64,000 nt of DNA, taken from the IMG/VR virus record IMGVR_UViG_3300029910_000007; one strand, 5' to 3'. The notes under the pieces were generated by a model. That model had not been told where the DNA came from and searched no databases. It worked only from the letters and a program-made list of their open reading frames with translations. Below are positions 375-46,718 of this stretch, piece by piece. How positions within the stretch are numbered: position 1 is the first letter of the stretch; each line of letters opens with the position of its first letter. The position numbers were made by a program, and so were the translations under genes. The DNA comes from a virus.

Positions 375-463
375 GGTTCAGTTAGCTGGCGGGCGTCAGC
401 ATCGGCCTTGAAAACCGACTATATGCGAAAGTGTATGGGGATCGATACCTCATTGAACCGCCA
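375..463 (+). tRNA. tRNA-Ser (anticodon UGA), class II with long extra arm
   Basis: Acceptor GGTTCAG/TTGAACC, D stem GCTG/CAGC, anticodon loop CTTGAAA (407-413), extra arm closed by GAAA tetraloop (420-435), T arm TGGGG-ATCGATA-CCTCA, G73 + CCA; C31-A39 mismatch. Confidence 0.8.
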
Positions 464-472
464 AACAAATAT

Positions 473-562
473 GTGATACAACCCAAATGGTGCGGGCGCG
501 GACTGTGACTCCGTTATATGCGAAAGCTAGGCTACTTAGTTCGATTCTAAGGTATCACCCCA
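473..562 (+). tRNA. class-II-shaped tRNA with anticodon GUG (isotype uncertain; Tyr-like scaffold)
   Basis: Perfect acceptor GTGATAC/GTATCAC, D stem CCC/GGG, anticodon arm GCGGA-CTGTGAC-TCCGT (498-514), 20-nt extra region (515-534), T arm CTTAG-TTCGATT-CTAAG, C73 + CCA. Confidence 0.6.
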
Positions 563-593
563 ATTTGTTCAAATCTGGATATAACTAAATATT

Positions 594-1406
594 ATGACAA
601 GAGCGTTCGTCAGCATTCTCAATGCTCATTCAATCGGTGACACTATCAATCAGATGTACATCGATCTATTGGTAGAAAAGACATCTGATGATCAATATTG
701 GTTGTTACACACGTCTGATAGTCCATCTGTAAATTCAGGACTCACTGATGGGTGGATTCACTTCGAACTTTTCAACCTCTATCGTAAAGCCGGTCTGTTC
801 AAGAATCTAATTTACATTGACAGACTTAGCAACCGAAATTACAACGAAGGTCATGTTGCAGGAAACTGGATTCACAGAGAGACTTGCAGAAGCTTCATAG
901 CCAAGGTCTACTCAAAGCATTATGATGAAGTGCATCTTGGTATCCCTGTTGAGATTGGATCGACTGTGTACATGCCAGAAGAGCTTAGAGAGAGGTTTTC
1001 TTTTCTGGATAGTGACGAAGAACCATATTCAACCATTCAGTGTCTGAGCACTCACTATAACACTGTAAAGATTCTTCCTAAAATTTACATGGATGCATTC
1101 TTGCATGGTCCACATCAAAAGATAAAGTTTACCGGATCATTGGTAGAGAAGCAGAGAGTTCAGGAACAGATTGATATTTTGAAACTTGACAATCCTGACA
1201 TAGATATGGTAAATTGTTGTGGTGTGAATATTGAAGAATATTTTCGAATCATCTATAATAGTGAGTCAAATCTCTCAACCGAGAGTAGTAGTTCATTATT
1301 GGCTGCTCAGCTTGGCATTCCTTCAATCATCCATTTTGTGTATCGTGCCGAAGTGGACATTTGGAAGAAGAAATTCAAGGATGTTCCTACTTTGACGTTT
1401 GTTTAG
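594..1406 (+). CDS. hypothetical protein, possible GT-B/GT9-like glycosyltransferase paralog
   Basis: 270-aa ORF; N-terminal HSIGD and C-terminal SSSLLAAQLGIPSIIHF resemble the GxGD and DSG..H.A.A.G.P motifs of family-9 glycosyltransferases; similar pattern in ORFs 2818 and 35166. Confidence 0.5.
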   Translation: MTRAFVSILNAHSIGDTINQMYIDLLVEKTSDDQYWLLHTSDSPSVNSGLTDGWIHFELFNLYRKAGLFKNLIYIDRLSNRNYNEGHVAGNWIHRETCRSFIAKVYSKHYDEVHLGIPVEIGSTVYMPEELRERFSFLDSDEEPYSTIQCLSTHYNTVKILPKIYMDAFLHGPHQKIKFTGSLVEKQRVQEQIDILKLDNPDIDMVNCCGVNIEEYFRIIYNSESNLSTESSSSLLAAQLGIPSIIHFVYRAEVDIWKKKFKDVPTLTFV

Positions 1407-1417
1407 AGAGTGATAAA

Positions 1418-1714
1418 ATGAGATTTGTATATTTTATAACACCAGAAGCGATGAATTACGACTGGACAAAATGGAAGAATGAACAAGTAGGAAAAATCTA
1501 TAAATCACAATATGAATTTGCATTCACTTTTTTCAATTATGATGAGAGGAATGTTTCTTACTATATGCAGGGTGTTGAGATGGCAATCCATATCAAATTT
1601 TATGAAAATGCTTCTTATATAGAAGCTTGTAGAGATAAGTGTCAATTGAATTCTTTTTATAAGCGCGGGTATGAAAATACTTCTGGCGCAATAGAAAAAT
1701 TAAAGAAAGTTTAA
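1418..1714 (+). CDS. hypothetical protein
   Basis: ATG at 1418 preceded by GAGAGTGA; the track start at 1361 overlaps the preceding gene. Confidence 0.55.
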   Translation: MRFVYFITPEAMNYDWTKWKNEQVGKIYKSQYEFAFTFFNYDERNVSYYMQGVEMAIHIKFYENASYIEACRDKCQLNSFYKRGYENTSGAIEKLKKV

Positions 1715-1716
1715 AT

Positions 1717-1790
1717 CCCCTCGCTGTTGGATTACAGCCGAAGCCCTACGAAGGCATCTGGTGCAGGTTCGATTCCTGTCGAGGGGTCCA
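1717..1790 (+). tRNA. tRNA-Arg (anticodon ACG)
   Basis: Perfect acceptor CCCCTCG/CGAGGGG, anticodon loop CTACGAA (1746-1752), T arm GCAGG-TTCGATT-CCTGT, T73 + CCA; D loop short. Confidence 0.7.
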
Positions 1791-2062
1791 CTTTAAGTTG
1801 TAGAGAACGGTTGGATGAAGTGTATCGAAAGCGGCTAGGACTCGGCTTCAATGCCGATAGGTCCACCAAAAACATCTTCACTGTCATAGCCCAAGACAGT
1901 TTGCGAGGATTAATGCAATAGAGGATGTTTCTGATGGGCCTAAAAGGATTCGACTGGCAGGTTATTAGAGAAAATGGACAACCCGAGAAGAACTCTCGTT
2001 AAAAAGATCAAGCAAGTAATTGCAGCAGCAAATGATACTTCTTGGGATATGGCACTCGCTGC

Positions 2063-2725
2063 TTAAACCAAGCTGGGATTTGGCAGTTGTTCCTTGTTAT
2101 CCAAACAACTGCGCTTTCTTTTTCTATTATTGAATTTACCAGAACAAGTATTACTACAAAACATTCGTTTTGTTAGATTTGTTTTGAAATTTGAATTACA
2201 TTCTTGGCACACCAATTCTAATATTGGTAGTTTTCTAGTCTTCCAATATATCTCATTTCGCCTTTTACAAACTGCACTTTGTCCCGGTCTTCGTATTCCT
2301 TTTGGTGATGCATTAGTCCAACCAAGTGCAGTATTAGTAGTCATCCATCGTTCGATTACATCTTTTCTAAACATAGGATTATTTTCTTTCATAAATTTTG
2401 AATATTCTGACTTTGCAATAGTGTATACATGAGAAGTTACTTTATATGTTCTATTGTTCCACTTTCTTGGTGGTACCGACATCGCCCACAGTGCCCGATA
2501 CATCTTAGATTTATCACTACCTATTGTCATTTTAACCAAAAGACGATGAAGAATGAAATGGACTCTAGCTGGAATTTTTGTTATATTTTCAGAAGAATTA
2601 TTTCCACCCATACTCTTAGGTAAAATATGATGCTTTTCTCCATATTCAGAGCCGTTAAAATGCTTGATCAAAATGAAATATAGATTAGTGTATTTGTTGT
2701 TTAGAAATTTTGAATAAATATCCAT
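2063..2725 (-). CDS. HNH homing endonuclease
   Basis: GEKHHILPKSMGGNNSSENITKIPARVHFILH HNH motif; C-terminal CQEC..CSNTC zinc-ribbon-like; opposite strand to neighbours and AT-richer. Confidence 0.85.
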   Translation of the reverse strand: MDIYSKFLNNKYTNLYFILIKHFNGSEYGEKHHILPKSMGGNNSSENITKIPARVHFILHRLLVKMTIGSDKSKMYRALWAMSVPPRKWNNRTYKVTSHVYTIAKSEYSKFMKENNPMFRKDVIERWMTTNTALGWTNASPKGIRRPGQSAVCKRRNEIYWKTRKLPILELVCQECNSNFKTNLTKRMFCSNTCSGKFNNRKRKRSCLDNKEQLPNPSLV

Positions 2726-2757
2726 GCTGCTGACCTCCTAAAGAAAGTTAAAGTAGA

Positions 2758-2799
2758 GCACATGGGTCTGAGAAACCGCGATGTGCACCTTTATTTATA
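2758..2799 (-). promoter_or_regulatory. T4-type late promoter plus 5' hairpin of the HNH gene
   Basis: On - strand TATAAATA (2792-2799), then stem GCACAT/ATGTGC (2758-2763/2781-2786), then CTCTAC..CTTTAGGAGG-N7-ATG; same cassette at 4761-4802 and 40770-40810. Confidence 0.55.
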
Positions 2800-2817
2800 G
2801 AAATCGAGTGAATATAA

Positions 2818-3744
2818 ATGTTATTGACTGATCCAGCTGAAATTACACTGATTGAAAACTATAGAAGAAATCTGAGCACTCAGGGAAAGTCTATAACAGT
2901 CGATACAGTCCAAGGCGTAGGAGACCTCGTATGGGTCTATCAGAAGCTTGCACCATACTTCGGTAAGATCAACCTGAACATCCTCGCAGTAGATAACTCA
3001 GAGCTTCAAATGAGAGCCAAGAAGTTCATCGAACTTCTCCCAAAAGTTGGAACAATCAACTACAAAATCACATCTTCTGAACATTACAACAAAGTAGCAT
3101 GGACACACCACAAGATGGGTCCAATTCTTATTGACCCAAATAAAATCCATGAGTATGCTGTCAACAAGCCAATGGAAGAAGGAATGAGAATTGATGCTAT
3201 CGATCCTGATACCCAAGTTGAATGGGACTTGAAGTTCAATGTCCCTGAACCTAGATTTCATGCCGGGAACTACATCGTTCTCTACATCTCAGGATCAAAG
3301 AATAATATGTCATGGGACCACAACAAGTGGGCAAGTTTCATCGTGACCATGTATCGTCGCTACAGACTTCGTGACACACTAGTCCTTTTTGGTGCCAACT
3401 ATGATGCTGCTGTTTTGAGAGCCATCGTTCCAATTCTTGCTAGAGACAAGATACCTATCAAACTACAGATCGATGGGACGCCACAGGACGCAATCAGATG
3501 CATCCGAGACGCACGTCTGTTCATAGGGTATCAGTCTGGAATGAATATCATTGCAGACAACTACAATGTCCCACAGATCATGTTGTATTTTCCATATCTA
3601 AAACCAATGTTAAACACTTGGTGTAAACCCGGTCATGCTGAGCGAAAGATTTTCAACGGATTCACATTTGATCAAACACCAGAAGAAATCTTGACATCCT
3701 GTCAGACCGTGTTAACATCGTTGGTGAATGGAAACAAGTTGTAA
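2818..3744 (+). CDS. putative glycosyltransferase (GT9/heptosyltransferase-like fold)
   Basis: 308 aa; VQGVGDLVWVYQKL near N-terminus and LFIGYQSGMNIIADNYNVPQIMLYF near C-terminus resemble GT9 signature regions. Confidence 0.5.
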   Translation: MLLTDPAEITLIENYRRNLSTQGKSITVDTVQGVGDLVWVYQKLAPYFGKINLNILAVDNSELQMRAKKFIELLPKVGTINYKITSSEHYNKVAWTHHKMGPILIDPNKIHEYAVNKPMEEGMRIDAIDPDTQVEWDLKFNVPEPRFHAGNYIVLYISGSKNNMSWDHNKWASFIVTMYRRYRLRDTLVLFGANYDAAVLRAIVPILARDKIPIKLQIDGTPQDAIRCIRDARLFIGYQSGMNIIADNYNVPQIMLYFPYLKPMLNTWCKPGHAERKIFNGFTFDQTPEEILTSCQTVLTSLVNGNKL

Positions 3745-3753
3745 ATAAAATAT

Positions 3754-3845
3754 GCTCCTGTCTTCTAATGGTAAGAAAGCAGATTTATACCCTGTAAGCC
3801 CCAGATTAGGGCGTAATACGTGTTCAAGTCACGTCGGGAGCACCA
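3754..3845 (+). tRNA. 92-nt tRNA with 22-nt extra arm; 7-nt loop TTTATAC gives anticodon UAU (Ile?), isotype uncertain
   Basis: Acceptor GCTCCTG/CGGGAGC, D arm TTCT-AATGGTA-AGAA, anticodon arm 3779-3795 (A31-C39 mismatch), extra arm GCCC-CAGATTA-GGGC (3798-3812), T arm ACGTG-TTCAAGT-CACGT, A73 + CCA. Confidence 0.6.
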
Positions 3846-3857
3846 AGTTCAAATTAT

Positions 3858-3932
3858 GGTGATATGGCAGAGCGATCATGCACTTCCCTCATAAGGAAGA
3901 TTAGACCAGTTTAACTCTGGTTATCACTACCA
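3858..3932 (+). tRNA. tRNA with CAU anticodon (Met or lysidine-type Ile2)
   Basis: Acceptor GGTGATA/TATCACT, perfect anticodon stem CTTCC/GGAAG with loop CTCATAA (3888-3894), T arm ACCAG-TTTAACT-CTGGT, A73 + CCA. Confidence 0.75.
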
Positions 3933-4729
3933 TATTTGTCATTCCAAATTCTAATATTTTGATTCAATTCTTCAATGGTAATAGAAGATCGACTAAATTT
4001 CTTCATATTTTCTCGTTGGGTCATAAGGGCGCAATTTGCAGGATGTTTCATTATGTTATGTGAAATTTTTAACAGAAATCCATCATAAATTGAAAACTTA
4101 TGATCTCTAGATAATCCATTTTGATTATTTTTTGGATTGAACATTTTACATTCTGAGAGAAGTTTAATATTAAACTCTTTTGGAAAATCACCAATGTTGA
4201 AAGAAAAATTGCATAATTTTCTATACTCGAAGAATATAGAATTGCGACAGGTCATGCACAATTTTGATGATATTGATGTTTTTCTGGCTTCATATTTTTC
4301 ACAATTAACACACTGTTTGAAATAAATTAGACATAAAGTTTTCTCTTTTGTAACTTTAAAATTTGTTGGTGAATCTTTGATGTAGCAAAAATCTCCAACA
4401 ACATTTAAATCTTTATTAACTGCTTTTAATGCAGATACTCTAGATTTTTCTGGATTCGAACAACCTGCTCTATTTTTATAAGTAGCACTACATGAATGTG
4501 AACAAAAATCTTTATTATCATGTCTTTTATCATATGGTATAATACTCTTACATTCAAGACACAATTTTGGATTTTCGTTATACTTTAAAATATTCTTTTG
4601 TTTCTTTGAATGGTTTGCTATACTAAGCACAGTGTAGTCGATTGTACTATGATTGTTAGATGAGTGACCACCAAGAGAGCTTTTATTTTTGGTAGTGAAA
4701 TCGCAATATTTACACTGATAAATAGTCAT
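3911..4729 (-). CDS. HNH-family homing endonuclease with N-terminal C2H2 zinc finger
   Basis: N-terminus YQCKYCDFTTKNKSSLGGHSSNNH; C-terminus LSRDHKFSI...HPANCALMTQRENMKK (HNH-like); 3' end overlaps tRNA 3858-3932 on the other strand. Confidence 0.75.
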   Translation of the reverse strand: MTIYQCKYCDFTTKNKSSLGGHSSNNHSTIDYTVLSIANHSKKQKNILKYNENPKLCLECKSIIPYDKRHDNKDFCSHSCSATYKNRAGCSNPEKSRVSALKAVNKDLNVVGDFCYIKDSPTNFKVTKEKTLCLIYFKQCVNCEKYEARKTSISSKLCMTCRNSIFFEYRKLCNFSFNIGDFPKEFNIKLLSECKMFNPKNNQNGLSRDHKFSIYDGFLLKISHNIMKHPANCALMTQRENMKKFSRSSITIEELNQNIRIWNDKYGSDNQS

Positions 4730-4760
4730 GCTACTAATCTCCTAAAGAAAGTTATGTAGA

Positions 4761-4802
4761 GCTAGTGGTATTGATAGTACGCGACTAGCACCTTTATTTA
4801 TG
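4761..4802 (-). promoter_or_regulatory. late-promoter-like box plus 5' hairpin of the HNH gene
   Basis: On - strand CATAAATA (4795-4802), stem GCTAGT/ACTAGC (4761-4766/4784-4789), CTCTAC..CTTTAGGAG-N7-ATG; the box abuts or overlaps nucleotide 1 of tRNA-Thr. Confidence 0.5.
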
Positions 4803-4875
4803 CTGCTTTAATTTAATGGTAGAATGACGCCTTCGTATAGCGTATGTAAGTGTTCGATTCACTTATGCAGCACCA
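4802..4875 (+). tRNA. tRNA-Thr (anticodon CGU)
   Basis: Acceptor GCTGCTT/ATGCAGC (one T-T mismatch), D arm ATTT-AATGGTA-GAAT, loop TTCGTAT (4832-4838), T arm AAGTG-TTCGATT-CACTT, A73 + CCA; C31-A39 mismatch. Confidence 0.7.
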
Positions 4876-4896
4876 CAAATTTTAGGAAACTATATT

Positions 4897-5123
4897 ATGC
4901 AACCACATGAAGAAAGAGTCTTTGAAGTCAAAGAACTTGATGAGAAGATCATCAATCTGACAAAGTTTGTCCATGGCGCAAACGATGGATGGTTGGAACA
5001 TTGAGTGCAAAATTTCAAGGACTCGATAAAGCAGAGCAAAGTCGCATGATGTCTCAGTTGCATATCATGCGAGCATATTCAACAATTCTTCACGCAAGAA
5101 TCAACGCATTTCCAAAGGATTAA
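4897..5123 (+). pseudogene. small conserved-looking gene split into two overlapping frames (4897-5004 and 4989-5123)
   Basis: Frame A gives MQPHEERVFEVKELDEKIINLTKFVHGANDGWLEH*; frame B gives MVGTLSAKFQGLDKAEQSRMMSQLHIMRAYSTILHARINAFPKD*; together they read like one helical protein. Confidence 0.4.
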
Positions 5124-5129
5124 AATATT

Positions 5130-5348
5130 ATGAGCGAATGTAAAGAAAAGAAGCAGAAGAAAGACGGTCAGGAAGTCTATCGAAACAGAGAATTAATTTT
5201 TGCTCAGTTTCGTGGTGGTAAGTCTCCAGCCAATGATTTGACATGCAAGTTACTCCCTCATCTGACTCACATTTCCTGTACCAAAGAATTTGCATTCAAC
5301 ATGTCTCTGGTCAAGGATGAAAATTTTGAAGTGACTCAGCATGGATGA
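5130..5348 (+). CDS. hypothetical protein
   Basis: 72-aa ORF, co-directional, 8-nt overlap with the next gene. Confidence 0.5.
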   Translation: MSECKEKKQKKDGQEVYRNRELIFAQFRGGKSPANDLTCKLLPHLTHISCTKEFAFNMSLVKDENFEVTQHG

Positions 5349-5778
5349 GATTACTCGATACGTTCTCGGCTTCATGTTCACAGAAGATATGAAGCGAGTC
5401 GTCCTGATCAAGAAGAATAAGCCAGAGTGGCAGAAAGGTCTTCTGAACGGTGTCGGTGGGCATGTTGAAGAATTTGAATTTTCTGAGAATGCAATGATCA
5501 GAGAATTTGAAGAAGAGACAGGTATTAAAACAGTAACTGGTCAATGGTATAATTTTGCACTGATGACTGGAGAGAAGTTTGATGTCGATTGTTATTTTTG
5601 TGTGAGTAATTCTGCTCTCTTTGCAGCGTCTATGACAGAGGAAGAAGTTACGGTTCCATTTGTTAATCATCTGTCAAAGGACCAAATACTATCGAATATA
5701 TCTTGGCTTTTAGGGTTGTGTCTCGACAAGGATATTAAGAGAATTTTCACACATGTTTCATATAGAACGGAAAGTTAA
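5341..5778 (+). CDS. Nudix hydrolase
   Basis: Nudix box GVGGHVEEFEFSENAMIREFEEETGI (G-x5-E-x7-REx2EExG). Confidence 0.85.
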   Translation: MDEITRYVLGFMFTEDMKRVVLIKKNKPEWQKGLLNGVGGHVEEFEFSENAMIREFEEETGIKTVTGQWYNFALMTGEKFDVDCYFCVSNSALFAASMTEEEVTVPFVNHLSKDQILSNISWLLGLCLDKDIKRIFTHVSYRTES

Positions 5779-5854
5779 GCTGAGAGGATCAGCCGCTGCC
5801 TCGAAAACAGTAGGATCATAATAGATAGAGTTTCGAATACTCAATTTTCCGCCA
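5769..5854 (+). tRNA. tRNA-Ser (anticodon CGA), class II
   Basis: Acceptor GGAAAGT/ATTTTCC, D stem GCTG/CAGC, loop CTCGAAA (5800-5806), extra arm 5812-5826, T loop TTCGAAT, G73 + CCA; the first 10 nt overlap the Nudix stop region; C31-A39 mismatch. Confidence 0.65.
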
Positions 5855-5861
5855 AATTTAC

Positions 5862-5937
5862 ACCGCTGTGCCCGGAAAGGATACGGAACATTTTCCTAAA
5901 GTGTTTAATGCTGGTTCGAGTCCAGTCAGCGGTTCCA
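5862..5937 (+). tRNA. tRNA-Arg (anticodon CCU)
   Basis: Perfect acceptor ACCGCTG/CAGCGGT, anticodon arm ACATT-TTCCTAA-AGTGT (5888-5904), T arm GCTGG-TTCGAGT-CCAGT, T73 + CCA. Confidence 0.8.
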
Positions 5938-20909: not shown

Positions 20910-21509
20910 GTGAAGAAGTTCCACGAAGCAGAGAAGAAGAGTGGTCATTTGCCAATGATTTTAAAATTGGACAAATCAGGCTCTCCGTGCGCTTGGTCAA
21001 AGTGGCAAGATATTGTGGTAGCTGAATTCACCGATAAGGTGATCTGGCGTCTGGGTGATCCTATTGACCTCACAGGAGGTACAGGCAAGGATGGAACTAC
21101 CTCACAGTTTGAATTGTATCCAGTTGTTGCAGTAGATGATCAGTCTGCTAGAAAGCGGAAGTGTGCGCCTGCACTGACCAATCGAATTTTGTTCTTGCGT
21201 GATCATCACACATGTGCTTATTGTGGGCATGTCTACATGGCTTCTAGTAAACTTTCTAGGGATCATGTTATTCCAACTTCAAAGGGTGGTCAAAACACTT
21301 GGAACAACTGTGTGACCGCATGCAAGCAATGCAACACTAAAAAGAGTGATCGACTGTTGTCTGAATGTGGTATGGTTTTGAGGTTCAAGCCGTTCACTCT
21401 GAATAATTTCGAGCACTTGATACTTCAAAACAAGCGCATCCTTCCAGTCCAGTTGGACTATTTGATCAAGGGTGTTTCCAAGAACTTTCATTATGAGGAA
21501 ACTGTATGA
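20910..21509 (+). CDS. HNH endonuclease-domain protein
   Basis: CAYCGH...LSRDHVIPTSKGGQNTWNNCVTACKQCNTKK. Confidence 0.8.
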   Translation: MKKFHEAEKKSGHLPMILKLDKSGSPCAWSKWQDIVVAEFTDKVIWRLGDPIDLTGGTGKDGTTSQFELYPVVAVDDQSARKRKCAPALTNRILFLRDHHTCAYCGHVYMASSKLSRDHVIPTSKGGQNTWNNCVTACKQCNTKKSDRLLSECGMVLRFKPFTLNNFEHLILQNKRILPVQLDYLIKGVSKNFHYEETV

Positions 21510-22257: not shown

Positions 22258-22929
22258 ACAAAATTTTAATTGAAGTCAGAGCAGCCGAGGGCGGAGATGA
22301 TGCCAAGTTATTGGTTAAAGATCAGGCCAAGATTTACCTGAATTATGCCAAGCAGGAGAGTCTTTGACCCTGAGATTCTAGAAGAATCATCAGGCTTTGC
22401 TTCACTAACACTATCAGGAGACTCTAGGAAGCTGTCTAGACTCATGAATGAGTCAGGTGGGCACAGATGGCAACGAATACCCCCTACAGAGCGTAATGGG
22501 CGTGTGCAGACCTCTACAGTAACAGTCTATGTATATCCCTTGGAAATGGAAACCAAGGGATATAAATTTTCCGAGAAAGACCTAGAAATCAGGTATACAA
22601 CAGCCGGTGGTAATGGTGGTCAACATCAGAACAAAACTTTGAGTGCCTGTCATATTCGACATGTTCCGACCGGAATCACAGTCTCTATCAGGACAGAACG
22701 TTCTCAGCCTCAAAATAGACGCCTAGCCTTTGAAATTCTGGAAGCTCGATTGAAGTCCAAGCATGAATCTGAAATTCACTGCGCAGCAAATAATGACAGA
22801 AAACAAAATATTGGTTCTGGTCAACGTGGTGATAAGGTCAAAACCTATTCTGTCAAACACGACATGGTCATTGATCATCTGACTGGAAATAAATTGAAGT
22901 TGAGCAAAGTTTTGAAAGGAATTTTGTAA
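22254..22929 (+). CDS. truncated class-I peptide chain release factor-like protein, two frames joined by a +1 shift at 22362-22368
   Basis: Frame 0 (22254-22364) gives MNKILIEVRAAEGGDDAKLLVKDQAKIYLNYAKQESL then TGA. The +1 frame (22366-22929) gives DPEILEESSG...RIPPTERNGRVQTS...GGNGGQHQNKT (GGQ). Junction AGGAG-AGT-CTT-TGA-C. Confidence 0.7.
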
Positions 22930-24900: not shown

Positions 24901-25275
24901 ATGAAATTCAATGGTTATATGCGAGATTGGAAGTCTGAACACCAAGTTCATCGTGATTGTGCTAAGCGCTCTTTTGATCATGTCATAAAAGATGCTATCG
25001 TGAGTGACGGTGTTGCTCGCTGGAAGAATATGACCAATCTGGTTCCGATGGACCTCTGTGAATTTGTTCTGGAAATTCTACCTGCTGATGAGGCGTACAA
25101 GTTTCAGGTTGATCTGGTGAAGCAGGAAGCTGCTCATGATGTGATCTTGGAACAGCTGGTCGCTCGTGAGAAGACTCGTGTGTATTCTGCTGAAGACTTG
25201 TTTGAAATGCGGGCCGCTTTCGGTCCCGGTGCAAGTGTTGTGAATGTTCTGAGTGGGAAGAGGATTCAACTGTGA
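24901..25275 (+). CDS. hypothetical early protein
   Basis: 124 aa behind CACGGAGAACAC. Confidence 0.6.
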   Translation: MKFNGYMRDWKSEHQVHRDCAKRSFDHVIKDAIVSDGVARWKNMTNLVPMDLCEFVLEILPADEAYKFQVDLVKQEAAHDVILEQLVAREKTRVYSAEDLFEMRAAFGPGASVVNVLSGKRIQL

Positions 25276-25463
25276 ACTTTCTTATTGGTCTTGGATTATG
25301 GGTTCTGTGTGCTATGATTGTAGCGAAGATCATGTATAATCTAAACGGAAAATTGGAAGCTGATAGTTGGACTGCGTCAATGCTTATGTTCTGGCCTATC
25401 TTTGTTATTGGATTGATTTTTGTTGGAGGATTTAAATTTTTAGTTTGGATTGTTAAATTTTAA
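25272..25463 (+). CDS. small membrane protein
   Basis: GTG start overlapping the upstream stop; two hydrophobic segments. Confidence 0.5.
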   Translation: MNFLIGLGLWVLCAMIVAKIMYNLNGKLEADSWTASMLMFWPIFVIGLIFVGGFKFLVWIVKF

Positions 25464-25466
25464 TTT

Positions 25467-25680
25467 GGGTCGTTGCCGACCTGTTGTCACAGCATCAAGG
25501 CTTGGTTAGCGGGGCTTTGGTGTGGGGAATCCTGCAAGTGTGACAATATAGGTATGGTTATGGGCACTAGGTAGGAGAGGTCTTTGGAAGCGTAGGGAGT
25601 GGTCGAAAGACTACCGCAACCTCCCGAGAAACAAGGATGGGTACTACCAACGTCAAGTTCGAGTCTTGGACGACCCACCA
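25467..25680 (+). ncRNA. 214-nt GC-rich structured RNA with a tRNA-like acceptor/T-arm formed by its two ends (tmRNA-like topology; class unknown)
   Basis: GGGTCGT (25467-25473) pairs perfectly with ACGACCC (25670-25676). T arm TCAAG-TTCGAGT-CTTGG (25653-25669), A + CCA (25677-25680). Internal helices 25484-25490/25540-25546 and 25595-25599/25621-25625, plus a GAAA hairpin 25600-25613. No D or anticodon arm in tRNA positions. Confidence 0.55.
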
Positions 25681-25704
25681 ATTTTGTAGTTCTGGAGAAA
25701 ATTT

Positions 25705-25899
25705 ATGACAGATACAGAAAAAGCTTGGATTGATTCAGCAGACTATGAGACACTTCTCAGGCGCTGGAGATTTTCCGAAATGACTGATTCAATTTTTCAA
25801 GGTGAGTCTGGAAAGTATTACTCAGACAGGATGTTTTCATTGAGGAATGCGAATGAAACCGCTGCTGTTGCAGCTTCGAAGAGGATTGGGTGGGGTTAA
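25705..25899 (+). CDS. hypothetical protein
   Basis: 64 aa behind TGGAGAAAATTT. Confidence 0.5.
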   Translation: MTDTEKAWIDSADYETLLRRWRFSEMTDSIFQGESGKYYSDRMFSLRNANETAAVAASKRIGWG

Positions 25900-26687
25900 T
25901 GGGTAGGAGGAATGTATAAAGATGGTGTTATTTTTGACCATTTTCTAGTCAGAATCGGTAGATTATACCTCTGCACACATTCTAATAAACATTGAATTGT
26001 ACTTTCTTTTGATATACACAATGCAACTGTTCCATTGTTAATATTTAACACTTTGGCCCTAGATGATTGATTTAAAATATCATGAATCCGCTTATTTAAA
26101 AATTCTAAGTTATTTTTCCAAGATGGATGAATCTGTATATTTATTTTATTATATCCAGTCTTTGTTCGATAAATACAACCATCCCCATCTACAAATCCAA
26201 TGAATAAACTAATCCATTGATCATCTGTTATGTTATACAATGATAGTTTTGGTGGATTAGTGGTTTTTCGTTCATTGATATCATACTTAGAACATATTTT
26301 TGGAACGACTTCACAATTTCTTGTTGTTACGTTAAAGTATGTATAATTTTTCTTAAAATTTGTGTTTCTAACGTATTTACCAACTTTTGCACCAACATAT
26401 TTTGCATATTTTTCAATATGTTCCTTATCCTTACTACCTAATTCTAATGCAATGGAAGTATTACCACTTACCCATCCATCCGCTAATAAAAATCCGATCC
26501 AATAAGCAGACACGTTTGTCTGGTCTAACAAAATTTCGATATTGTTGAATTTATGTTTCTTTGCTGAAATATTTAATCTTTTTAATGTGTTTCGTATAGA
26601 GCTAACATCACGCTTCAAATGAGACGCTAACTCTGTTGCCGTTAAATTATTACAGTTTTCTATAATGTATGTAGTTGAAGTGTCCAT
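25896..26687 (-). CDS. LAGLIDADG homing endonuclease (two-motif) with N-terminal HTH-like region
   Basis: WIGFLLADGWV and LFIGFVDGDGCIY motifs; ATG 26687 (track GTG 26693); opposite strand, AT-rich. Confidence 0.8.
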   Translation of the reverse strand: MDTSTTYIIENCNNLTATELASHLKRDVSSIRNTLKRLNISAKKHKFNNIEILLDQTNVSAYWIGFLLADGWVSGNTSIALELGSKDKEHIEKYAKYVGAKVGKYVRNTNFKKNYTYFNVTTRNCEVVPKICSKYDINERKTTNPPKLSLYNITDDQWISLFIGFVDGDGCIYRTKTGYNKINIQIHPSWKNNLEFLNKRIHDILNQSSRAKVLNINNGTVALCISKESTIQCLLECVQRYNLPILTRKWSKITPSLYIPPTH

Positions 26688-26761
26688 AACCACCTATCAT
26701 GACTTGTATATTTCTATTTATCATGGTACACTACACATAAGATGATAATACGGACAATTCA

Positions 26762-27987: not shown

Positions 27988-29061
27988 ATGCAAAAACAAT
28001 ATAAGACAGCCGTTGTAATCGGGAGATTCCAGCCCCACCATCAGGGGCACCTCTCACTCTTCAGAAAAGCAGCCGAACTTGCTGACAACATCGTCATCAT
28101 TGTTGGTTCTTCTTACATTGCTCGAAACATCAAGAACCCATTCACATTTGAAGAGCGTGAAGCCATGCTCTATGAAACTGTCAAGAACATGTTCGAAAAT
28201 GTCTATACCTATGGTGTGACTGACTACATGTATAACGACTCTCAGTGGATTTCTGAGGTTTCCTATAATGTTGATGAAGCAATTTCTGATATTGATGAAA
28301 ACGACCCACACCCTTTGCATGTCAGAACTTTTACCAAAGACGTTGTGATCGTCGGGTATCACAAGGATGCTTCCAGCTGGTATTTGGATAAATTTCCACA
28401 GTATGACTATGTCGAAGCCAATTCTGAACATCCTTTGGATGCCACAACAATTCGTGAACAGTTGTTCACCCTAAAAGATGATGAATATTACGCATGGAAT
28501 GTTCCGAAGCATGTATTTAACTTCTTGATGAAGTTTGTCAAGACGGATGAGTATGTTGCACTGCGTGAGGAATATGAGCAGAACGTAAACTACAAAAAGC
28601 CTTATATCGGGCTTCCTTATCCACCAATTTTCCAGACTGTGGATGCTGTTGTGTTCTGTAAGTCTCATTTCCTTGTCGTAAAGCGTCGTGCGAGTCCCGG
28701 AAAGGGACTTCTAGCCCTTCCGGGAGGTTTCCTGAACGTTGATGAGCGAATCAACAATGGCATCCTTAGAGAGCTTCTGGAAGAGACCAGAATCAAGGTC
28801 CGAGAAGATAAGCTAGTGATTAGGGAAACCAAGACATTTGATCATCCAAATAGGTCTCTTCGTGGTCGAACGATTACCACAACTGGATTGATCATTCTGG
28901 ATGATGAACACGAACTTCCAAAGGTTCGTGGGTCTGATGATGCTGAAAAAGCAAAATGGATTCCAATCAGTAAATTACATACAATGAGTGACAAACTATT
29001 TGAGGATCATTTTTCAATTTTGAACTATTGGGTTCCTATTGCCGAACGTTACGGATTTTAA
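27988..29061 (+). CDS. natV: bifunctional NMN adenylyltransferase / Nudix (ADP-ribose pyrophosphatase-type) protein
   Basis: N-terminal VVIGRFQPHHQGHLSLF (nucleotidyltransferase HxGH); C-terminal Nudix box GGFLNVDERINNGILRELLEETRI. Confidence 0.8.
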   Translation: MQKQYKTAVVIGRFQPHHQGHLSLFRKAAELADNIVIIVGSSYIARNIKNPFTFEEREAMLYETVKNMFENVYTYGVTDYMYNDSQWISEVSYNVDEAISDIDENDPHPLHVRTFTKDVVIVGYHKDASSWYLDKFPQYDYVEANSEHPLDATTIREQLFTLKDDEYYAWNVPKHVFNFLMKFVKTDEYVALREEYEQNVNYKKPYIGLPYPPIFQTVDAVVFCKSHFLVVKRRASPGKGLLALPGGFLNVDERINNGILRELLEETRIKVREDKLVIRETKTFDHPNRSLRGRTITTTGLIILDDEHELPKVRGSDDAEKAKWIPISKLHTMSDKLFEDHFSILNYWVPIAERYGF

Positions 29062-29064
29062 GCC

Positions 29065-29409
29065 ATGTTATCCAAACCACAAATCGAAGCCATTCTCAAA
29101 AGAGTCAAATATCTTGACTGGGAATTCCGTGTTCACCATGAAAAACTTGAACCTCGTTCATGGCAGGATAAAACACTCGAAAAGAGGTATATGTATTTTC
29201 TTCAGGTAGTTTTTAAAGCGCCTGACGCAAACACTGGAATATTGGAAGAACAACGTTGCAGATGGCATCTAATTGATACCGATAAAGGCACATACGAAAT
29301 TTTAAGGCTTGCTTACAAAGCTATCAAGGATGCAGTTCTGCATGAAATGAATGAAAACTTTTATGTTGATGGCGATAGAGTAGCTGACCCACATTTGACA
29401 TATAACTAA
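29065..29409 (+). CDS. hypothetical protein between the two NAD-salvage genes
   Basis: 114-aa ORF. Confidence 0.5.
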   Translation: MLSKPQIEAILKRVKYLDWEFRVHHEKLEPRSWQDKTLEKRYMYFLQVVFKAPDANTGILEEQRCRWHLIDTDKGTYEILRLAYKAIKDAVLHEMNENFYVDGDRVADPHLTYN

Positions 29410-29427
29410 CCTTTGATGTAAACTTAC

Positions 29428-29446
29428 AGTGCGGATAGACTGCACT
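29428..29446 (+). promoter_or_regulatory. conserved hairpin upstream of the NAMPT gene (also terminator-like)
   Basis: Stem AGTGC/GCACT with loop GGATAGACT, followed by TTTTAATTTT; the RBS region GGAGATAGACTCATG echoes the loop. Confidence 0.45.
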
Positions 29447-29472
29447 TTTAATTTTAAAATGGAGATAGACTC

Positions 29473-30870
29473 ATGACACAGACAAATTTCTTACTGAATA
29501 CAGATAGTTACAAACACAGCCAGTGGCTTCAGTACCCACCCGGAACTGAGTATGTCTATAGCTATATCGAATCTCGTGGTGGAGAATATCCTCATTCTCT
29601 GTTCTTTGGTCTTCAAATGTTCATCAAGAAGTATCTGACCAAGCCGATCACAATTTCAGACATTGTGGAAGCGCAGATTGTGTGCAAGGCCCATGGTGTA
29701 CCATTCAATGGTGATGGATGGATGTACATCCTCAAGGAACATGGTGGTAAGCTTCCTCTTCTCATCAAGGCGGTTCCAGAAGGGTCTGTTCTTCCTGTTG
29801 GACTTCCTTTGGTTACTATTGTCAACACTGACCCAAAGTGTTATTGGCTGACATCATTTGCCGAGACTGCGATTCTTCGTGGTGTTTGGTATCCAACAAC
29901 CGTCGCAACAAAGTCCATGGAAATCCGAAAGGTTATCAAACGTTATCTTGAACAGACTGGTGATGTTTCTGGTCTTGACTTTAAATTGCATGATTTTGGT
30001 GCAAGAGGTGTTTCTTCTGAAGAAAGTGCTGAAGTCGGTGGACTTGCTCATTTGGCAACCGGATTTAAGGGAACTGACACAATGTCTGCTCTTCTTGGTG
30101 CCTACAAATATTATGGTGAAGAAATGGCTGGTTTCAGTATTCCAGCTTCCGAACATAGCACCATCACGTCATGGGGGAAGGAACGAGAGTTTGATGCCTA
30201 TCGAAATATGATCAAATTGTTTGGCGGAGACGGGAAAATTTATGCTTGTGTCTCTGATTCGTTCGATGTTTTCAATGCAACCAGAAACGGGTGGGGTGGT
30301 GTTCTCAAGGATGAAGTGATTGCAGCTGGTGGAACGCTTGTCATTCGTCCAGATTCTGGTGAGATTGTCCCCACAATTTTGAAGCTCGCAAATATTATTG
30401 ATGAAAAGTTTGGCTCTACTATCAATGCCAAAGGCTACAAAGTCTTCAACAACGTTCGTCTGATTCAGGGTGATGGAATTGATGGTCATACCATCGTTGA
30501 TGAGATTCTTTGGGAGTTGAGTGATTGGGGGTTTAGTGCTGATAACATTGCATTTGGTTCTGGTGGTGGAATGCTTCAGAAGCTCAATCGTGACACCATG
30601 AAGTTTGCCATGAAATGTTCTGCAGCCAAGATCAATGGTGAATGGGTTGATGTCTATAAAGACCCTATCACTGATTTAGGAAAGCGTTCCAAGCGCGGTA
30701 GAATCGAGACTGTGAGGATGTGGACCACTGATGGTAAGCTGGTTGTTCACGATCTATCTAAGCCTCTGGAAGGCGGTGATTACATGATGCAGACTGTGTT
30801 TGAAAATGGTCGCCTGTTGGTTGATCAAAGTCTGATGCAGATTCGCTCTCTTGTTGCTTCACAAATCTAA
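29473..30870 (+). CDS. nadV: nicotinamide phosphoribosyltransferase (NAMPT)
   Basis: 465 aa; N-terminal LLNTDSYKHSQW, GARGVSS, SIPASEHS, IRPDSG, LIQGDGI regions typical of NAMPT/NadV. Confidence 0.85.
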   Translation: MTQTNFLLNTDSYKHSQWLQYPPGTEYVYSYIESRGGEYPHSLFFGLQMFIKKYLTKPITISDIVEAQIVCKAHGVPFNGDGWMYILKEHGGKLPLLIKAVPEGSVLPVGLPLVTIVNTDPKCYWLTSFAETAILRGVWYPTTVATKSMEIRKVIKRYLEQTGDVSGLDFKLHDFGARGVSSEESAEVGGLAHLATGFKGTDTMSALLGAYKYYGEEMAGFSIPASEHSTITSWGKEREFDAYRNMIKLFGGDGKIYACVSDSFDVFNATRNGWGGVLKDEVIAAGGTLVIRPDSGEIVPTILKLANIIDEKFGSTINAKGYKVFNNVRLIQGDGIDGHTIVDEILWELSDWGFSADNIAFGSGGGMLQKLNRDTMKFAMKCSAAKINGEWVDVYKDPITDLGKRSKRGRIETVRMWTTDGKLVVHDLSKPLEGGDYMMQTVFENGRLLVDQSLMQIRSLVASQI

Positions 30871-34434: not shown

Positions 34435-35169
34435 TTGCAAATATTTAAACACAAACATCACATTATACCAAAACATATGGGAGGTACTAACGATCCTTCT
34501 AATTTAATTCGATTGACTATTGAAGAACACGCGGAAGCTCATAGGAAATTATGGGAAACTTTTGGTAAAAAGGAAGATTATATTGCGTGGAAAGCTCTCT
34601 CAGGATCAATATCATGTGAAGAAATTACACGCTTAATTCTTTCTATGGTTGGGCAGAGACAGGGAAAGATTAATGCTGAAAATGGTCATATGTCAAATAT
34701 TGGAAAAAATATGCCAATGGAGGATAGACTTAGGTATTCTGCTCTTGCTGTTGAAGTTATGCGATCAGAAAAACTTGGTTGCTTTTTTAATGATGAACTT
34801 AGAAGAAAATCTTGCTCTCTAGGAGGAAAAATACAAGGCCCAAGGAATGTAAAATCTGGGCATTTATCTCGAATAGCAAAAATTAAAACACCTAAAAGAG
34901 AACAAGCTTGGAAAGAAGTTCAGAAAAAATCCTATCTTGTATGTACACCAGAATGGAAAAGTAATATGCTTACTCAATATTGGGCAGATGTTCATTCTGG
35001 ATTAAAACAACGAGTAAAACAACCTAAGAAAATAACTATAAACAATGGTATCAATAATAAACAAATATTAGCAATAGAAACAATTCCAGAAGGATGGAAA
35101 CGAGGTATATTGAGAAGTAGGTCTGGTCCTAAAGTTGGATCAAAGCATAAAATAAAGATTAAAACATGA
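34435..35169 (+). CDS. HNH homing endonuclease
   Basis: TTG start; HKHHIIPKHMGGTNDPSNLIRLTIEEHAEAH. Confidence 0.8.
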   Translation: MQIFKHKHHIIPKHMGGTNDPSNLIRLTIEEHAEAHRKLWETFGKKEDYIAWKALSGSISCEEITRLILSMVGQRQGKINAENGHMSNIGKNMPMEDRLRYSALAVEVMRSEKLGCFFNDELRRKSCSLGGKIQGPRNVKSGHLSRIAKIKTPKREQAWKEVQKKSYLVCTPEWKSNMLTQYWADVHSGLKQRVKQPKKITINNGINNKQILAIETIPEGWKRGILRSRSGPKVGSKHKIKIKT

Positions 35170-46410: not shown

Positions 46411-46504
46411 CATTCTAAAGGAAGTTTGTTAATCTATTCGAGCAGCGTCAAAGCATGTTTCGACAGCATGAGCCGAGTCCAAGGCAAGCAATAGTGCAAA
46501 CCGT

Positions 46505-46575
46505 ACATGCCGTGGTCGTGTAGCGTTACTGACACGTAGAAGCATTCCGAGAGCAATGCCGGTTGGCCCACGTCA
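46505..46575 (+). other. GC-rich non-coding segment with a three-way-junction-like fold
   Basis: CGTGG/CCACG (46511-46515/46568-46572) encloses hairpins CGTGT/ACACG (46517-46536) and GCATT/AATGC (46541-46558); no ORF in 46411-46605. Confidence 0.3.
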
Positions 46576-46718
46576 AGGGCTTAACTTATATTATGAGGAT
46601 TATCTGTGAAAACTAAACCTTTCAGACTCAAGTTGAGAGAAGAGTGTCGATATTTCACATTCAATGCGATGGTGAAACGAGGATTGCTTCCATGGTATTC
46701 TAGAACACCAAGAAAATA

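Follow-up and report, generated by a model that had tools for sequence, protein, structure and literature searches.

Species 1 and species 2 RNAs of phage T4 have been known since the 1970s, have so far been assigned no function and looked peculiar to the T-even phages. Species 1 RNA (rnaC) is made within a 1.75-kb tRNA precursor transcript (PMC2330249), and its function is stated to be unknown in reviews and recent papers alike (PMC3014915, PMC9697503, PMC12685909). We analysed a 64,000-nt stretch of viral DNA (IMG/VR virus record IMGVR_UViG_3300029910_000007; hereafter the window), in which a first-pass annotation had picked out a 214-nt element at positions 25467–25680 whose ends form a tRNA acceptor stem, a T arm and an encoded CCA. 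By sequence the element is an orphan; by kind it joins the stable tRNA-like RNAs of phages, of which T4 species 1 RNA is the type, and it appears that a very distant T4-like phage has independently built an RNA of the rnaC design.

Y RNAs pair their 5′ and 3′ ends into the Ro-binding stem and carry the tRNA-like module internally. Engineered 'tRNA scaffold' RNAs place a recombinant RNA inside a tRNA frame so that it is stably expressed in E. coli. The Y RNAs of bacteria mimic tRNAs and are found in phages too (PMC12282133). Transfer-messenger RNA (tmRNA) is a substrate of RNase P, an enzyme that accepts several tRNA-like substrates other than tRNA (PMC11143913), and the tRNA-like t-elements of plant mitochondria define mRNA ends (PMC1920247).

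An oversized tRNA frame around two long predicted hairpins

The tRNA features present in the element are a 7-bp acceptor stem, a T arm with the T-loop consensus, a discriminator base and a CCA end (Table 1). The sequence observation of the first-pass annotation is confirmed: GGGTCGT pairs perfectly with ACGACCC (25670–25676), the T arm TCAAG-TTCGAGT-CTTGG abuts the 3′ acceptor strand, and A-CCA follows at 25677–25680. The D and anticodon arms are absent from their tRNA positions, with no trace of a D stem or an anticodon loop, and because two long irregular helices have replaced them the RNA cannot decode. Hairpin I consists of about 29 bp, 8 of them G-U, plus a small GGG/CCU side hairpin. Hairpin II rises from a 5-bp base helix (GGUAG/CUACC) through internal loops to a GAAA tetraloop at its tip. 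The junction is spaced like that of a tRNA: the T stem abuts the acceptor stem (0 nt) and is preceded by 4 nt, and 1 nt follows the acceptor strand. The GGG of the linker between the hairpins may contact the T loop in the manner of G18-G19 of a tRNA D loop; this is speculative, as is the parallel that such a stand-in for the D loop would draw with the tRNA-like domain of tmRNA.

Table 1. Positions of the element, its parts and the features that adjoin it in the window.
Feature	Position	Strand	Basis
Predicted membrane open reading frame (ORF) of 63 aa; stop 3 nt before the RNA	25272..25463	+	
Segment of ~386 nt missing from the relative L008/L009 (most of the 63-aa ORF and the entire RNA)	25308..25694		
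Likely tRNA-like RNA gene, whole, 214 nt; predicted four-way junction	25467..25680	+	Fold, shuffle test, identical in 17 contigs
Acceptor stem 5′ strand GGGUCGU; U at −1	25467..25473	+	Mean pair probability 0.95; leader context like phage tRNA genes
Hairpin I, 84 nt, at the D-arm place; element positions 9–92	25475..25558	+	Helix pair probabilities 0.64–0.96
Single-stranded linker of 11 nt, UAUGGGCACUA, between hairpins I and II	25559..25569	+	Unpaired in minimum free energy and centroid folds
Hairpin II, 79 nt, at the anticodon-arm place; element positions 104–182	25570..25648	+	Pair probabilities 0.82–0.99
'Variable loop' of 4 nt, AACG, after hairpin II	25649..25652	+	tRNA-like geometry
T arm UCAAG - UUCGAGU - CUUGG	25653..25669	+	Sequence; apparently kept in third strain (read-through translation)
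Acceptor 3′ strand ACGACCC, discriminator A and encoded CCA	25670..25680	+	Sequence
Downstream ORF of 64 aa, anchor gene in all three strains	25705..25899	+	

The + strand folds into a four-way junction at a minimum free energy (MFE) of −78.9 kcal/mol, with helix mean pair probabilities of 0.64–0.99. Its reverse complement reaches −48.7 kcal/mol (z = +0.97), which places the two strands 30 kcal/mol apart. Taken alone, hairpin I has z = −3.5 on the + strand versus −0.6 on the reverse complement, and its 8 G-U pairs are possible in the + strand RNA only; hairpin II alone has z = −2.2 on the + strand. The MFE fold contains each of the interior helices listed in the first-pass annotation (TTGTCAC/GTGACAA, GGGA(G)/(C)UCCC and the GAAA-capped hairpin), with mean pair probabilities of 0.8–0.99. 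The block is also GC-rich, as described, at 0.50–0.53 versus about 0.37–0.43 in the flanks.

The tRNA-end motif occurs far beyond chance. A scan of the window for a T arm followed by 7 nt, any nucleotide and CCA returned seven + strand sites, namely five called tRNAs, a tRNA-like gene at 473–562 and the element. In 300 dinucleotide-preserving shuffles of the window, the mean count of a T arm with a correctly spaced CCA was 0.083 per window, against the 7 observed. When a perfect Watson–Crick 7-mer acceptor partner was required as well, 4 sites remained versus a shuffle mean of 0.0033. The oversized type, with an interior of at least 100 nt, was found once in the window and in none of the 300 shuffled windows. 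The element also shares its boundaries with seven tRNA genes of the window: all eight have an A/T-rich leader, an encoded CCA and an A/T-rich trailer, and seven of the eight have T at −1. We consider it likely that 25467–25680 is a real RNA gene.

Three ORFs lie over the element. The first-pass annotation had recognised a single antisense ORF and judged it implausible; that judgement holds for this 64-aa frame, which has no genuine relative among 1.84 billion representative proteins and only a spurious match. It is not the sole ORF there, since two + strand frames of 33 and 44 aa also lie over the element; they too are without relatives. An antisense regulatory role was considered for the RNA and dropped, as complementarity between the element and the remaining window is at chance level.

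The element matches no Rfam family

Rfam 15 was run at gathering thresholds across the window and at an E-value of 10 across 25300–25850, covering tRNA, all tmRNA families, Y RNAs, group I and II introns, RNase P RNA, signal recognition particle RNA and 6S RNA. Both Rfam and ARAGORN are silent at the element, even at this permissive E-value, and thus neither an ARAGORN tRNA call nor a match to the Rfam tRNA model RF00005 was obtained. Three identities had been offered for the element, a miniaturised tmRNA, a tRNA with a large insertion and a new tRNA mimic, and only the last survives. An insertion into a tRNA finds no support in an ARAGORN intron search, negative at default stringency, or in the behaviour of 1,431 derivatives representing every possible single internal deletion that leaves 70–96 nt, none of which is called as a tRNA. 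A group I intron within a tRNA was likewise rejected: no intron model matches, the interior is about 180 nt and there are no tRNA halves.

The tmRNA reading fares no better as an identity. The same tools that are silent here do find a complete permuted tmRNA at 1777–2157. Position 3:70 is G-C and not the G-U alanine identity pair, and the element holds no tag-like ORF, both as the first-pass annotation had said. What stands of its comparison is the topology. Like the tRNA-like domain of tmRNA, the element combines an acceptor stem, T arm and CCA with the lack of a closed D stem, and in both a long helix departs from the position of the anticodon stem. The element differs in having no G3-U70 pair, no tag frame and no pseudoknot set, and in carrying an extra long hairpin at the D-arm place.

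We also considered whether the frame imitates a particular tRNA. The acceptor stem, A73 and CCA equal those of E. coli tRNA-Lys, but the same stem occurs in tRNA-Ile(GAU) of other contigs (L022–L024), and a tRNA-Lys identity was rejected. Because of this shared stem, and because the weak tRNA matches of a covariance model built from the element itself are to Phe and Ser tRNAs, no amino-acid or isoacceptor identity can be assigned.

Other natural tRNA-shaped RNAs resemble the element in part. Bacterial Y RNAs of the YrlA type are, like it, non-coding tRNA mimics with a T arm, but the topology is inverted, since the ends of the element are an acceptor stem with CCA, and no rsr gene is adjacent. 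The t-elements of plant mitochondria and the 3′ tRNA-like structures of plant RNA viruses share the tRNA-shaped fold, by which enzymes of tRNA processing recognise RNAs other than true tRNAs (PMC1920247, PMC11143913), but these are parts of mRNAs or genomes, the viral ones have pseudoknotted acceptor arms, and in none are a canonical acceptor stem and T arm separated by two arms of 80 nt. A tRNA scaffold lets an unrelated structured insert be processed precisely and resist nucleases, as we propose below for the element; the scaffolds are artificial, however, and keep the D arm, so that the insert replaces the anticodon arm only.

T4 species 1 RNA shares the design of the element

The closest likeness is to T4 rnaC (139 nt; L011:1909-2047, − strand), which has the same order of arms. 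In both RNAs an acceptor-type terminal stem is followed by a long hairpin I, a linker at the same place (9 nt in rnaC, 11 nt in the element), hairpin II and a T arm that abuts the 3′ strand. Both are encoded by a phage and exceed a tRNA in length, and the element would probably also be, as rnaC is, a stable RNA embedded in a polycistronic transcript. Each also has a homing endonuclease gene nearby, segB in T4 and a LAGLIDADG gene in the window.

To these likenesses correspond several differences. The element is larger (214 versus 139 nt) and encodes the CCA that rnaC lacks, and its perfect acceptor stem is free of the two U-U mismatches present in most copies of rnaC. The loop of hairpin II that is invariant in the rnaC family, GCGUCAAC, is absent from hairpin II of the element.

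An alignment of T4 rnaC with six diverged homologs from other Tevenvirinae genera gave a consensus fold of 44 pairs, of which 22 show compensatory changes. The terminal stem itself covaries: it spans 7 positions, and the two that are U-U mismatches in most phages are fully paired in Yersinia phage TG1. Since the consensus fold covaries, the rnaC family is a genuine four-arm tRNA-like RNA. It has no Rfam model and would be worth submitting.

The likeness does not extend to sequence. A covariance model of these seven diverse genes scores T4 rnaC itself at 163 bits; it gives no match to the element with default filters and, with the filters off, 9.1 bits in a mis-registered alignment, versus 9.6 bits for an unstructured intergenic control region in the window. 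The reverse test agrees, in that the covariance model of the element finds nothing in T4 rnaC. Because the rnaC model does not recognise the element, we regard the likeness as one of design only, with no homology detected.

Two further candidates for rnaC-like RNAs were followed and rejected. The intergenic region 46411–46600 (+ strand, 190 nt) has a T-arm-like hairpin and CCA, with motifs AGCGTCAA and GTAGCGTTACTGAC that resemble conserved rnaC loops; it is unstructured (z = +0.98) and its covariance-model score is at noise level. A weak match of the rnaC model at L074:14549-14670 (122 nt) is a tRNA-Gln plus spacer.

A second apparently independent instance suggests that the design has been selected and is not an accident, and it makes the old question of rnaC more tractable. 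The element is the cleaner second model, given its perfect acceptor stem, encoded CCA, stand-alone gene and natural presence or absence among close strains, although its practical value is limited for now as the phage is uncultured.

A strain-variable accessory element

The window derives from a T4-like phage with a Gp23 capsid protein, a T4 scaffold protein, an ATP-dependent DNA ligase, and NAMPT and NMNAT-Nudix proteins. Its capsid protein shares no more than 57% identity with any from a GenBank phage. The genome, of about 158.5 kb, recurs in many ENA and JGI metagenome assemblies, and the 17 contigs of this phage that we fetched are all 100% identical over 25201–25950.

Two related strains differ at the locus, and the element is an accessory gene that varies between strains. 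In the first (L008/L009), the downstream gene is 84% identical in DNA, and the segment missing relative to the window (Table 1) is bounded in the window by a direct repeat, GTTCTG, at 25302–25307 and 25689–25694. The flanking ORFs of this relative are translationally coupled without the element.

The other (hereafter the third strain; JGI 3300050821, a 1,315-nt contig) is known from its gene calls and protein P0009 alone. P0009 is an 83-aa version of the downstream gene, and its N-terminal extension, MGTINVKFESWTTHQ, is save for one residue the translation of window positions 25637–25681 (MGTTNVKFESWTTHQ), so that the frame crossing the 3′ end of the element is fused to the next gene. The extension corresponds to element positions 171–215. 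The one visible change would be C181 to U, which turns the pair G105-C181 into G-U. Only 20% of single-base changes in this stretch would be silent in that frame, and the adjoining gene differs at 7 of 63 residues. We infer that the third strain has the last 45 nt of the RNA, a stretch that runs from the 3′ side of the hairpin II base helix through the variable loop and T arm to the acceptor 3′ strand and ACCA. The spacing of its genes fits an RNA of equal length starting about 4 nt past the upstream stop codon. As support for conservation this is indirect, and the sample is small.

The strains also bear on the LAGLIDADG gene, which lies at 25896–26693 (− strand), 216 nt downstream of the element as the first-pass annotation had stated. 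An unrelated 130-aa ORF takes its place in L008/L009, and in the third strain a 120-aa ORF, not the endonuclease, follows the anchor ORF. Because unrelated ORFs replace it in these two strains, the gene is best seen as a recent insertion. It is not linked to the RNA, since the third strain appears to have the RNA with the 120-aa ORF in place of the endonuclease.

Searches for homologs

Searches beyond these strains yielded no relative of the element. Among GenBank phages, megablast, blastn and tblastn with the element and both flanking ORFs gave no match. In IMG/VR, exact and gapped end-anchored patterns gave 0 matches and a protein-anchored search was also empty, and two scans of GTDB genomes returned 0 matches. 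The JGI metagenome collection, which does not contain this phage, was scanned once with a pattern that does match the window. The three matches obtained consist of a piece of a tRNA and, after it, an ordinary tRNA-Ile(GAU) that shares the acceptor stem, and were rejected as homologs. The three flanking proteins, used as probes, led to L008/L009, to L010 (unrelated), to L031 (short, without the RNA) and to the third strain. In 52 loci anchored on NMNAT-Nudix (662 kb), nhmmer, blastn and the covariance model of the element found ordinary tRNAs only; that model scores 269 bits on the element and finds nothing similar elsewhere.

Two other arrangements seen in these sequences deserve description in their own right. 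Directly upstream of a tRNA-Ile(GAU), and identical to it over the first 16 nt, lies a 125-nt stretch beginning GGGTCGTTGGTTCAGT that starts like a tRNA and forms none (three JGI contigs, L022:745-945, L023:2123-2323 and L024:5803-6003); its sequence suggests that the tRNA gene was partly duplicated. In an IMG/VR phage, L065:11983-12202 (+ strand), a complete tRNA-Ile(UAU) is nested in a 220-nt frame with its own 7-bp acceptor stem, T arm and ACCA, and the frame minus the inner tRNA yields a weak call of a tRNA-Ser(GGA) containing an intron. Either a tRNA gene was disrupted here or the arrangement is one of nested tRNAs. It was the sole other oversized frame in a structural scan of the NMNAT-Nudix loci and, as a disrupted tRNA-Ser-like gene, was set aside as an analog of the element.

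A proposed route from transcript to RNA, and its rivals

The reading that we favour, and think somewhat more likely than not, is that the element is an accessory tRNA-mimic RNA cut from a polycistronic transcript by host tRNA-maturation enzymes, with the tRNA frame acting as a scaffold for processing and stability. The element would be transcribed together with its neighbours. Excision from a polycistronic transcript is most likely because the element stands amid a run of small genes on the same (+) strand and lacks transcription signals of its own, with neither a sigma-70-type promoter nor a terminator on its flanks. The 5′ end would be made by RNase P, between U(−1) and G(+1); the bacterial enzyme recognises a coaxial acceptor/T-arm minihelix with NCCA. 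An endonuclease would cut in the A/U-rich trailer and exonucleases would trim to the CCA, a route that would be that of the phage's own tRNAs and of T4 species 1 RNA. The excised RNA would probably be stable, because both of its ends are locked in the tRNA frame, and the two arms would carry the function, probably by binding or titrating a protein.

Several observations weigh against this proposal. The element is dispensable, as L008/L009, whose 124-aa ORF is 83% identical, does without it. No homolog came to light among the phages of GenBank, in IMG/VR, in the JGI metagenome collection, in GTDB genomes or in 762 kb of related phage loci, and since all 17 copies are identical no covariation test is possible. 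The whole-molecule z of the + strand is just −2.4 to −2.6. Whereas rnaC is inside the tRNA cluster of T4, 19.5 kb separate the element from that of its own phage. Finally, no partner protein was identified.

The function in this proposal could be refined, without contradiction, into an anti-defence decoy. A trans-acting tRNA mimic would soak up a host factor that reads the acceptor/T-arm half or the CCA end, such as a tRNA-targeting toxin or defence nuclease, a nucleotidyltransferase or an acetyltransferase, and real tRNAs would be protected during infection. The element keeps the tRNA parts that such enzymes, and RNase P and CCA enzymes, read and drops the decoding parts. Two weaker pointers are its position in a strain-variable accessory region of small orphan ORFs and the NAMPT and NMNAT-Nudix genes 2.3 kb downstream. 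That phage tRNAs can counter tRNA-targeting defences is documented (bioRxiv 10.1101/2023.03.15.532788). However, the best-known of these defences cut anticodon loops, of which the element has none, the acceptor stem is not specific for an isoacceptor (it is found in E. coli tRNA-Lys and in a tRNA-Ile), and no defence or anti-defence partner was identified. We therefore hold the decoy as a tentative idea of rather low probability.

A more general form of the idea, to which we attach a similarly small chance, would make the element the first natural 'tRNA-scaffolded' effector RNA in a phage: a CCA-ended mimic of the top half of a tRNA, matured by host enzymes as a tRNA is, whose arms or mimic end trap a host factor, either a defence factor or a translation factor that reads the acceptor, T arm or CCA. 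If it were true, T4 species 1 RNA would have converged on the same functional class, and an RNA that has been an orphan for 50 years would gain a testable hypothesis.

An alternative that dispenses with any role in trans is a purely cis-acting processing signal between the 63-aa and 64-aa ORFs, the excised RNA itself being functionless. The tight fit between the genes speaks for it: the element starts 3 nt past one stop codon, and the next Shine–Dalgarno sequence (GGAG, 25695–25698) begins 15 nt after the CCA, this sequence and the start codon lying within 15–25 nt of it. So does the lack of a promoter or terminator of the element's own. There is precedent in the t-elements (PMC1920247) and in the RNase P-dependent processing of polycistronic mRNA (PMC11143913). 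Yet an acceptor/T-arm minihelix would suffice as a signal, which leaves about 165 nt of GC-rich, strand-specific helix superfluous, and L008/L009 simply couples the flanking ORFs translationally. As this additional stable helix is needless for punctuation, we rank a trans-acting protein-binding or decoy role above the cis-acting one, which seems unlikely.

The element might instead be a decaying tRNA gene, a neutral relic whose D and anticodon regions were overwritten by insertions. Its dispensability in a close relative, the homing-endonuclease traffic of the region, the lack of sequence relatives and the existence of a disrupted tRNA frame in another phage (L065) all fit. None of the 1,431 deletions restores a recognisable tRNA, however, and no D stem or anticodon loop has left a trace. 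In fold stability and in strand asymmetry the supposedly inserted parts come first, the acceptor stem, T arm and CCA show no flaw, and the last 45 nt are apparently near-unchanged in the third strain despite its diverged neighbour gene. Because the non-tRNA parts fold best and the ends are flawless, both the trans- and the cis-acting roles rank above a relic, which we also judge improbable.

A Y-RNA-like mimic acting with a Ro60/Rsr-type protein is very unlikely. Phages do carry bacterial Y RNAs (PMC12282133), and a candidate partner adjoins the tRNA cluster, a 466-aa DUF2828/DUF7788 protein (6322–7722, + strand) with a helical N-terminal and an alpha/beta C-terminal part. The Rfam Y-RNA and YrlA models are nevertheless silent, the ends of the element form an acceptor stem with CCA where those of a Y RNA form the Ro-binding stem, the DUF2828 gene is 19 kb away, and its product has no sequence match to solved Ro60 structures. 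A single-sequence AlphaFold model of the protein (predicted local distance difference test score, pLDDT, 41) is too poor to compare, and the DUF2828 literature is uninformative on a Ro60-like role.

Least likely of all, and close to negligible, is a miniature tmRNA or a tRNA with a self-splicing intron: for the former, the acceptor stem and T arm without a D stem are set against the 3:70 G-C pair, the missing tag-like ORF and the complete permuted tmRNA already encoded at 1777–2157, and for both stand the silence of ARAGORN, in its tmRNA and intron modes, and of the Rfam tmRNA and group I/II intron models.

Neighbouring genes and other tRNA-like features of the window

The 63-aa ORF upstream of the element has no relatives outside this phage. 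Besides the LAGLIDADG gene, the homing endonucleases of the window are of the HNH type, at 2063–2725 (− strand), 20910–21509 (+ strand) and 34435–35169 (+ strand). The genes for the bifunctional NMNAT-Nudix protein and then NAMPT occupy 27988–30870 (+ strand), 2.3 kb downstream of the RNA. They are the NAD+ salvage pair of KVP40-like phages, described as a phage NAD+-reconstitution counter-defence against NAD-depleting immunity.

The tRNA cluster spans 375–5937, and all tRNA genes in it encode the CCA. The tmRNA within it (1777–2157, + strand) is complete and of the permuted, two-piece type, scores 82.7 bits with the Rfam model tmRNA_permuted, encodes the tag AAANDTSWDMALAA and overlaps the 3′ end of a tRNA-Arg(ACG) call at 1717–1790. 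The permuted type hints at an alpha-proteobacterial, beta-proteobacterial or cyanobacterial kind of host.

Long variable arms of bacterial tRNAs are normally confined to those for Leu, Ser and Tyr. Expanded tRNA frames recur in this phage, in a long-arm tRNA-Ile(UAU) and in a long-arm gene resembling tRNA-His(GUG). The tRNA-Ile(UAU), of 92 nt with a long variable arm, lies at 3754–3845 (+ strand) and is also found in two distantly related IMG/VR phages (L035:3106-3197 and L065:12051-12142). The second is the tRNA-like gene at 473–562 (+ strand), whose acceptor stem is perfect and which also has a T arm and encodes C-CCA. It is missed by ARAGORN at default settings and by Rfam at the gathering threshold; at slightly relaxed stringency it is called as a 90-nt tRNA-His(GUG) without an encoded G-1. 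Its long variable arm resembles that of the adjacent tRNA-Ser(UGA), and a long-arm (type II-like) tRNA-His would be unusual.

A further gene related to translation is a 194-aa ORF at 22345–22929 (+ strand), which matches only the C-terminal half of release factor 1 (the end of PCRF and the RF-1/GGQ domain), below the family cut-offs. Depending on the assembly, the region is called as 37 plus 161 aa or as 194 aa, and it could be a truncated release factor, a ribosome-rescue factor or a frameshift-dependent gene.

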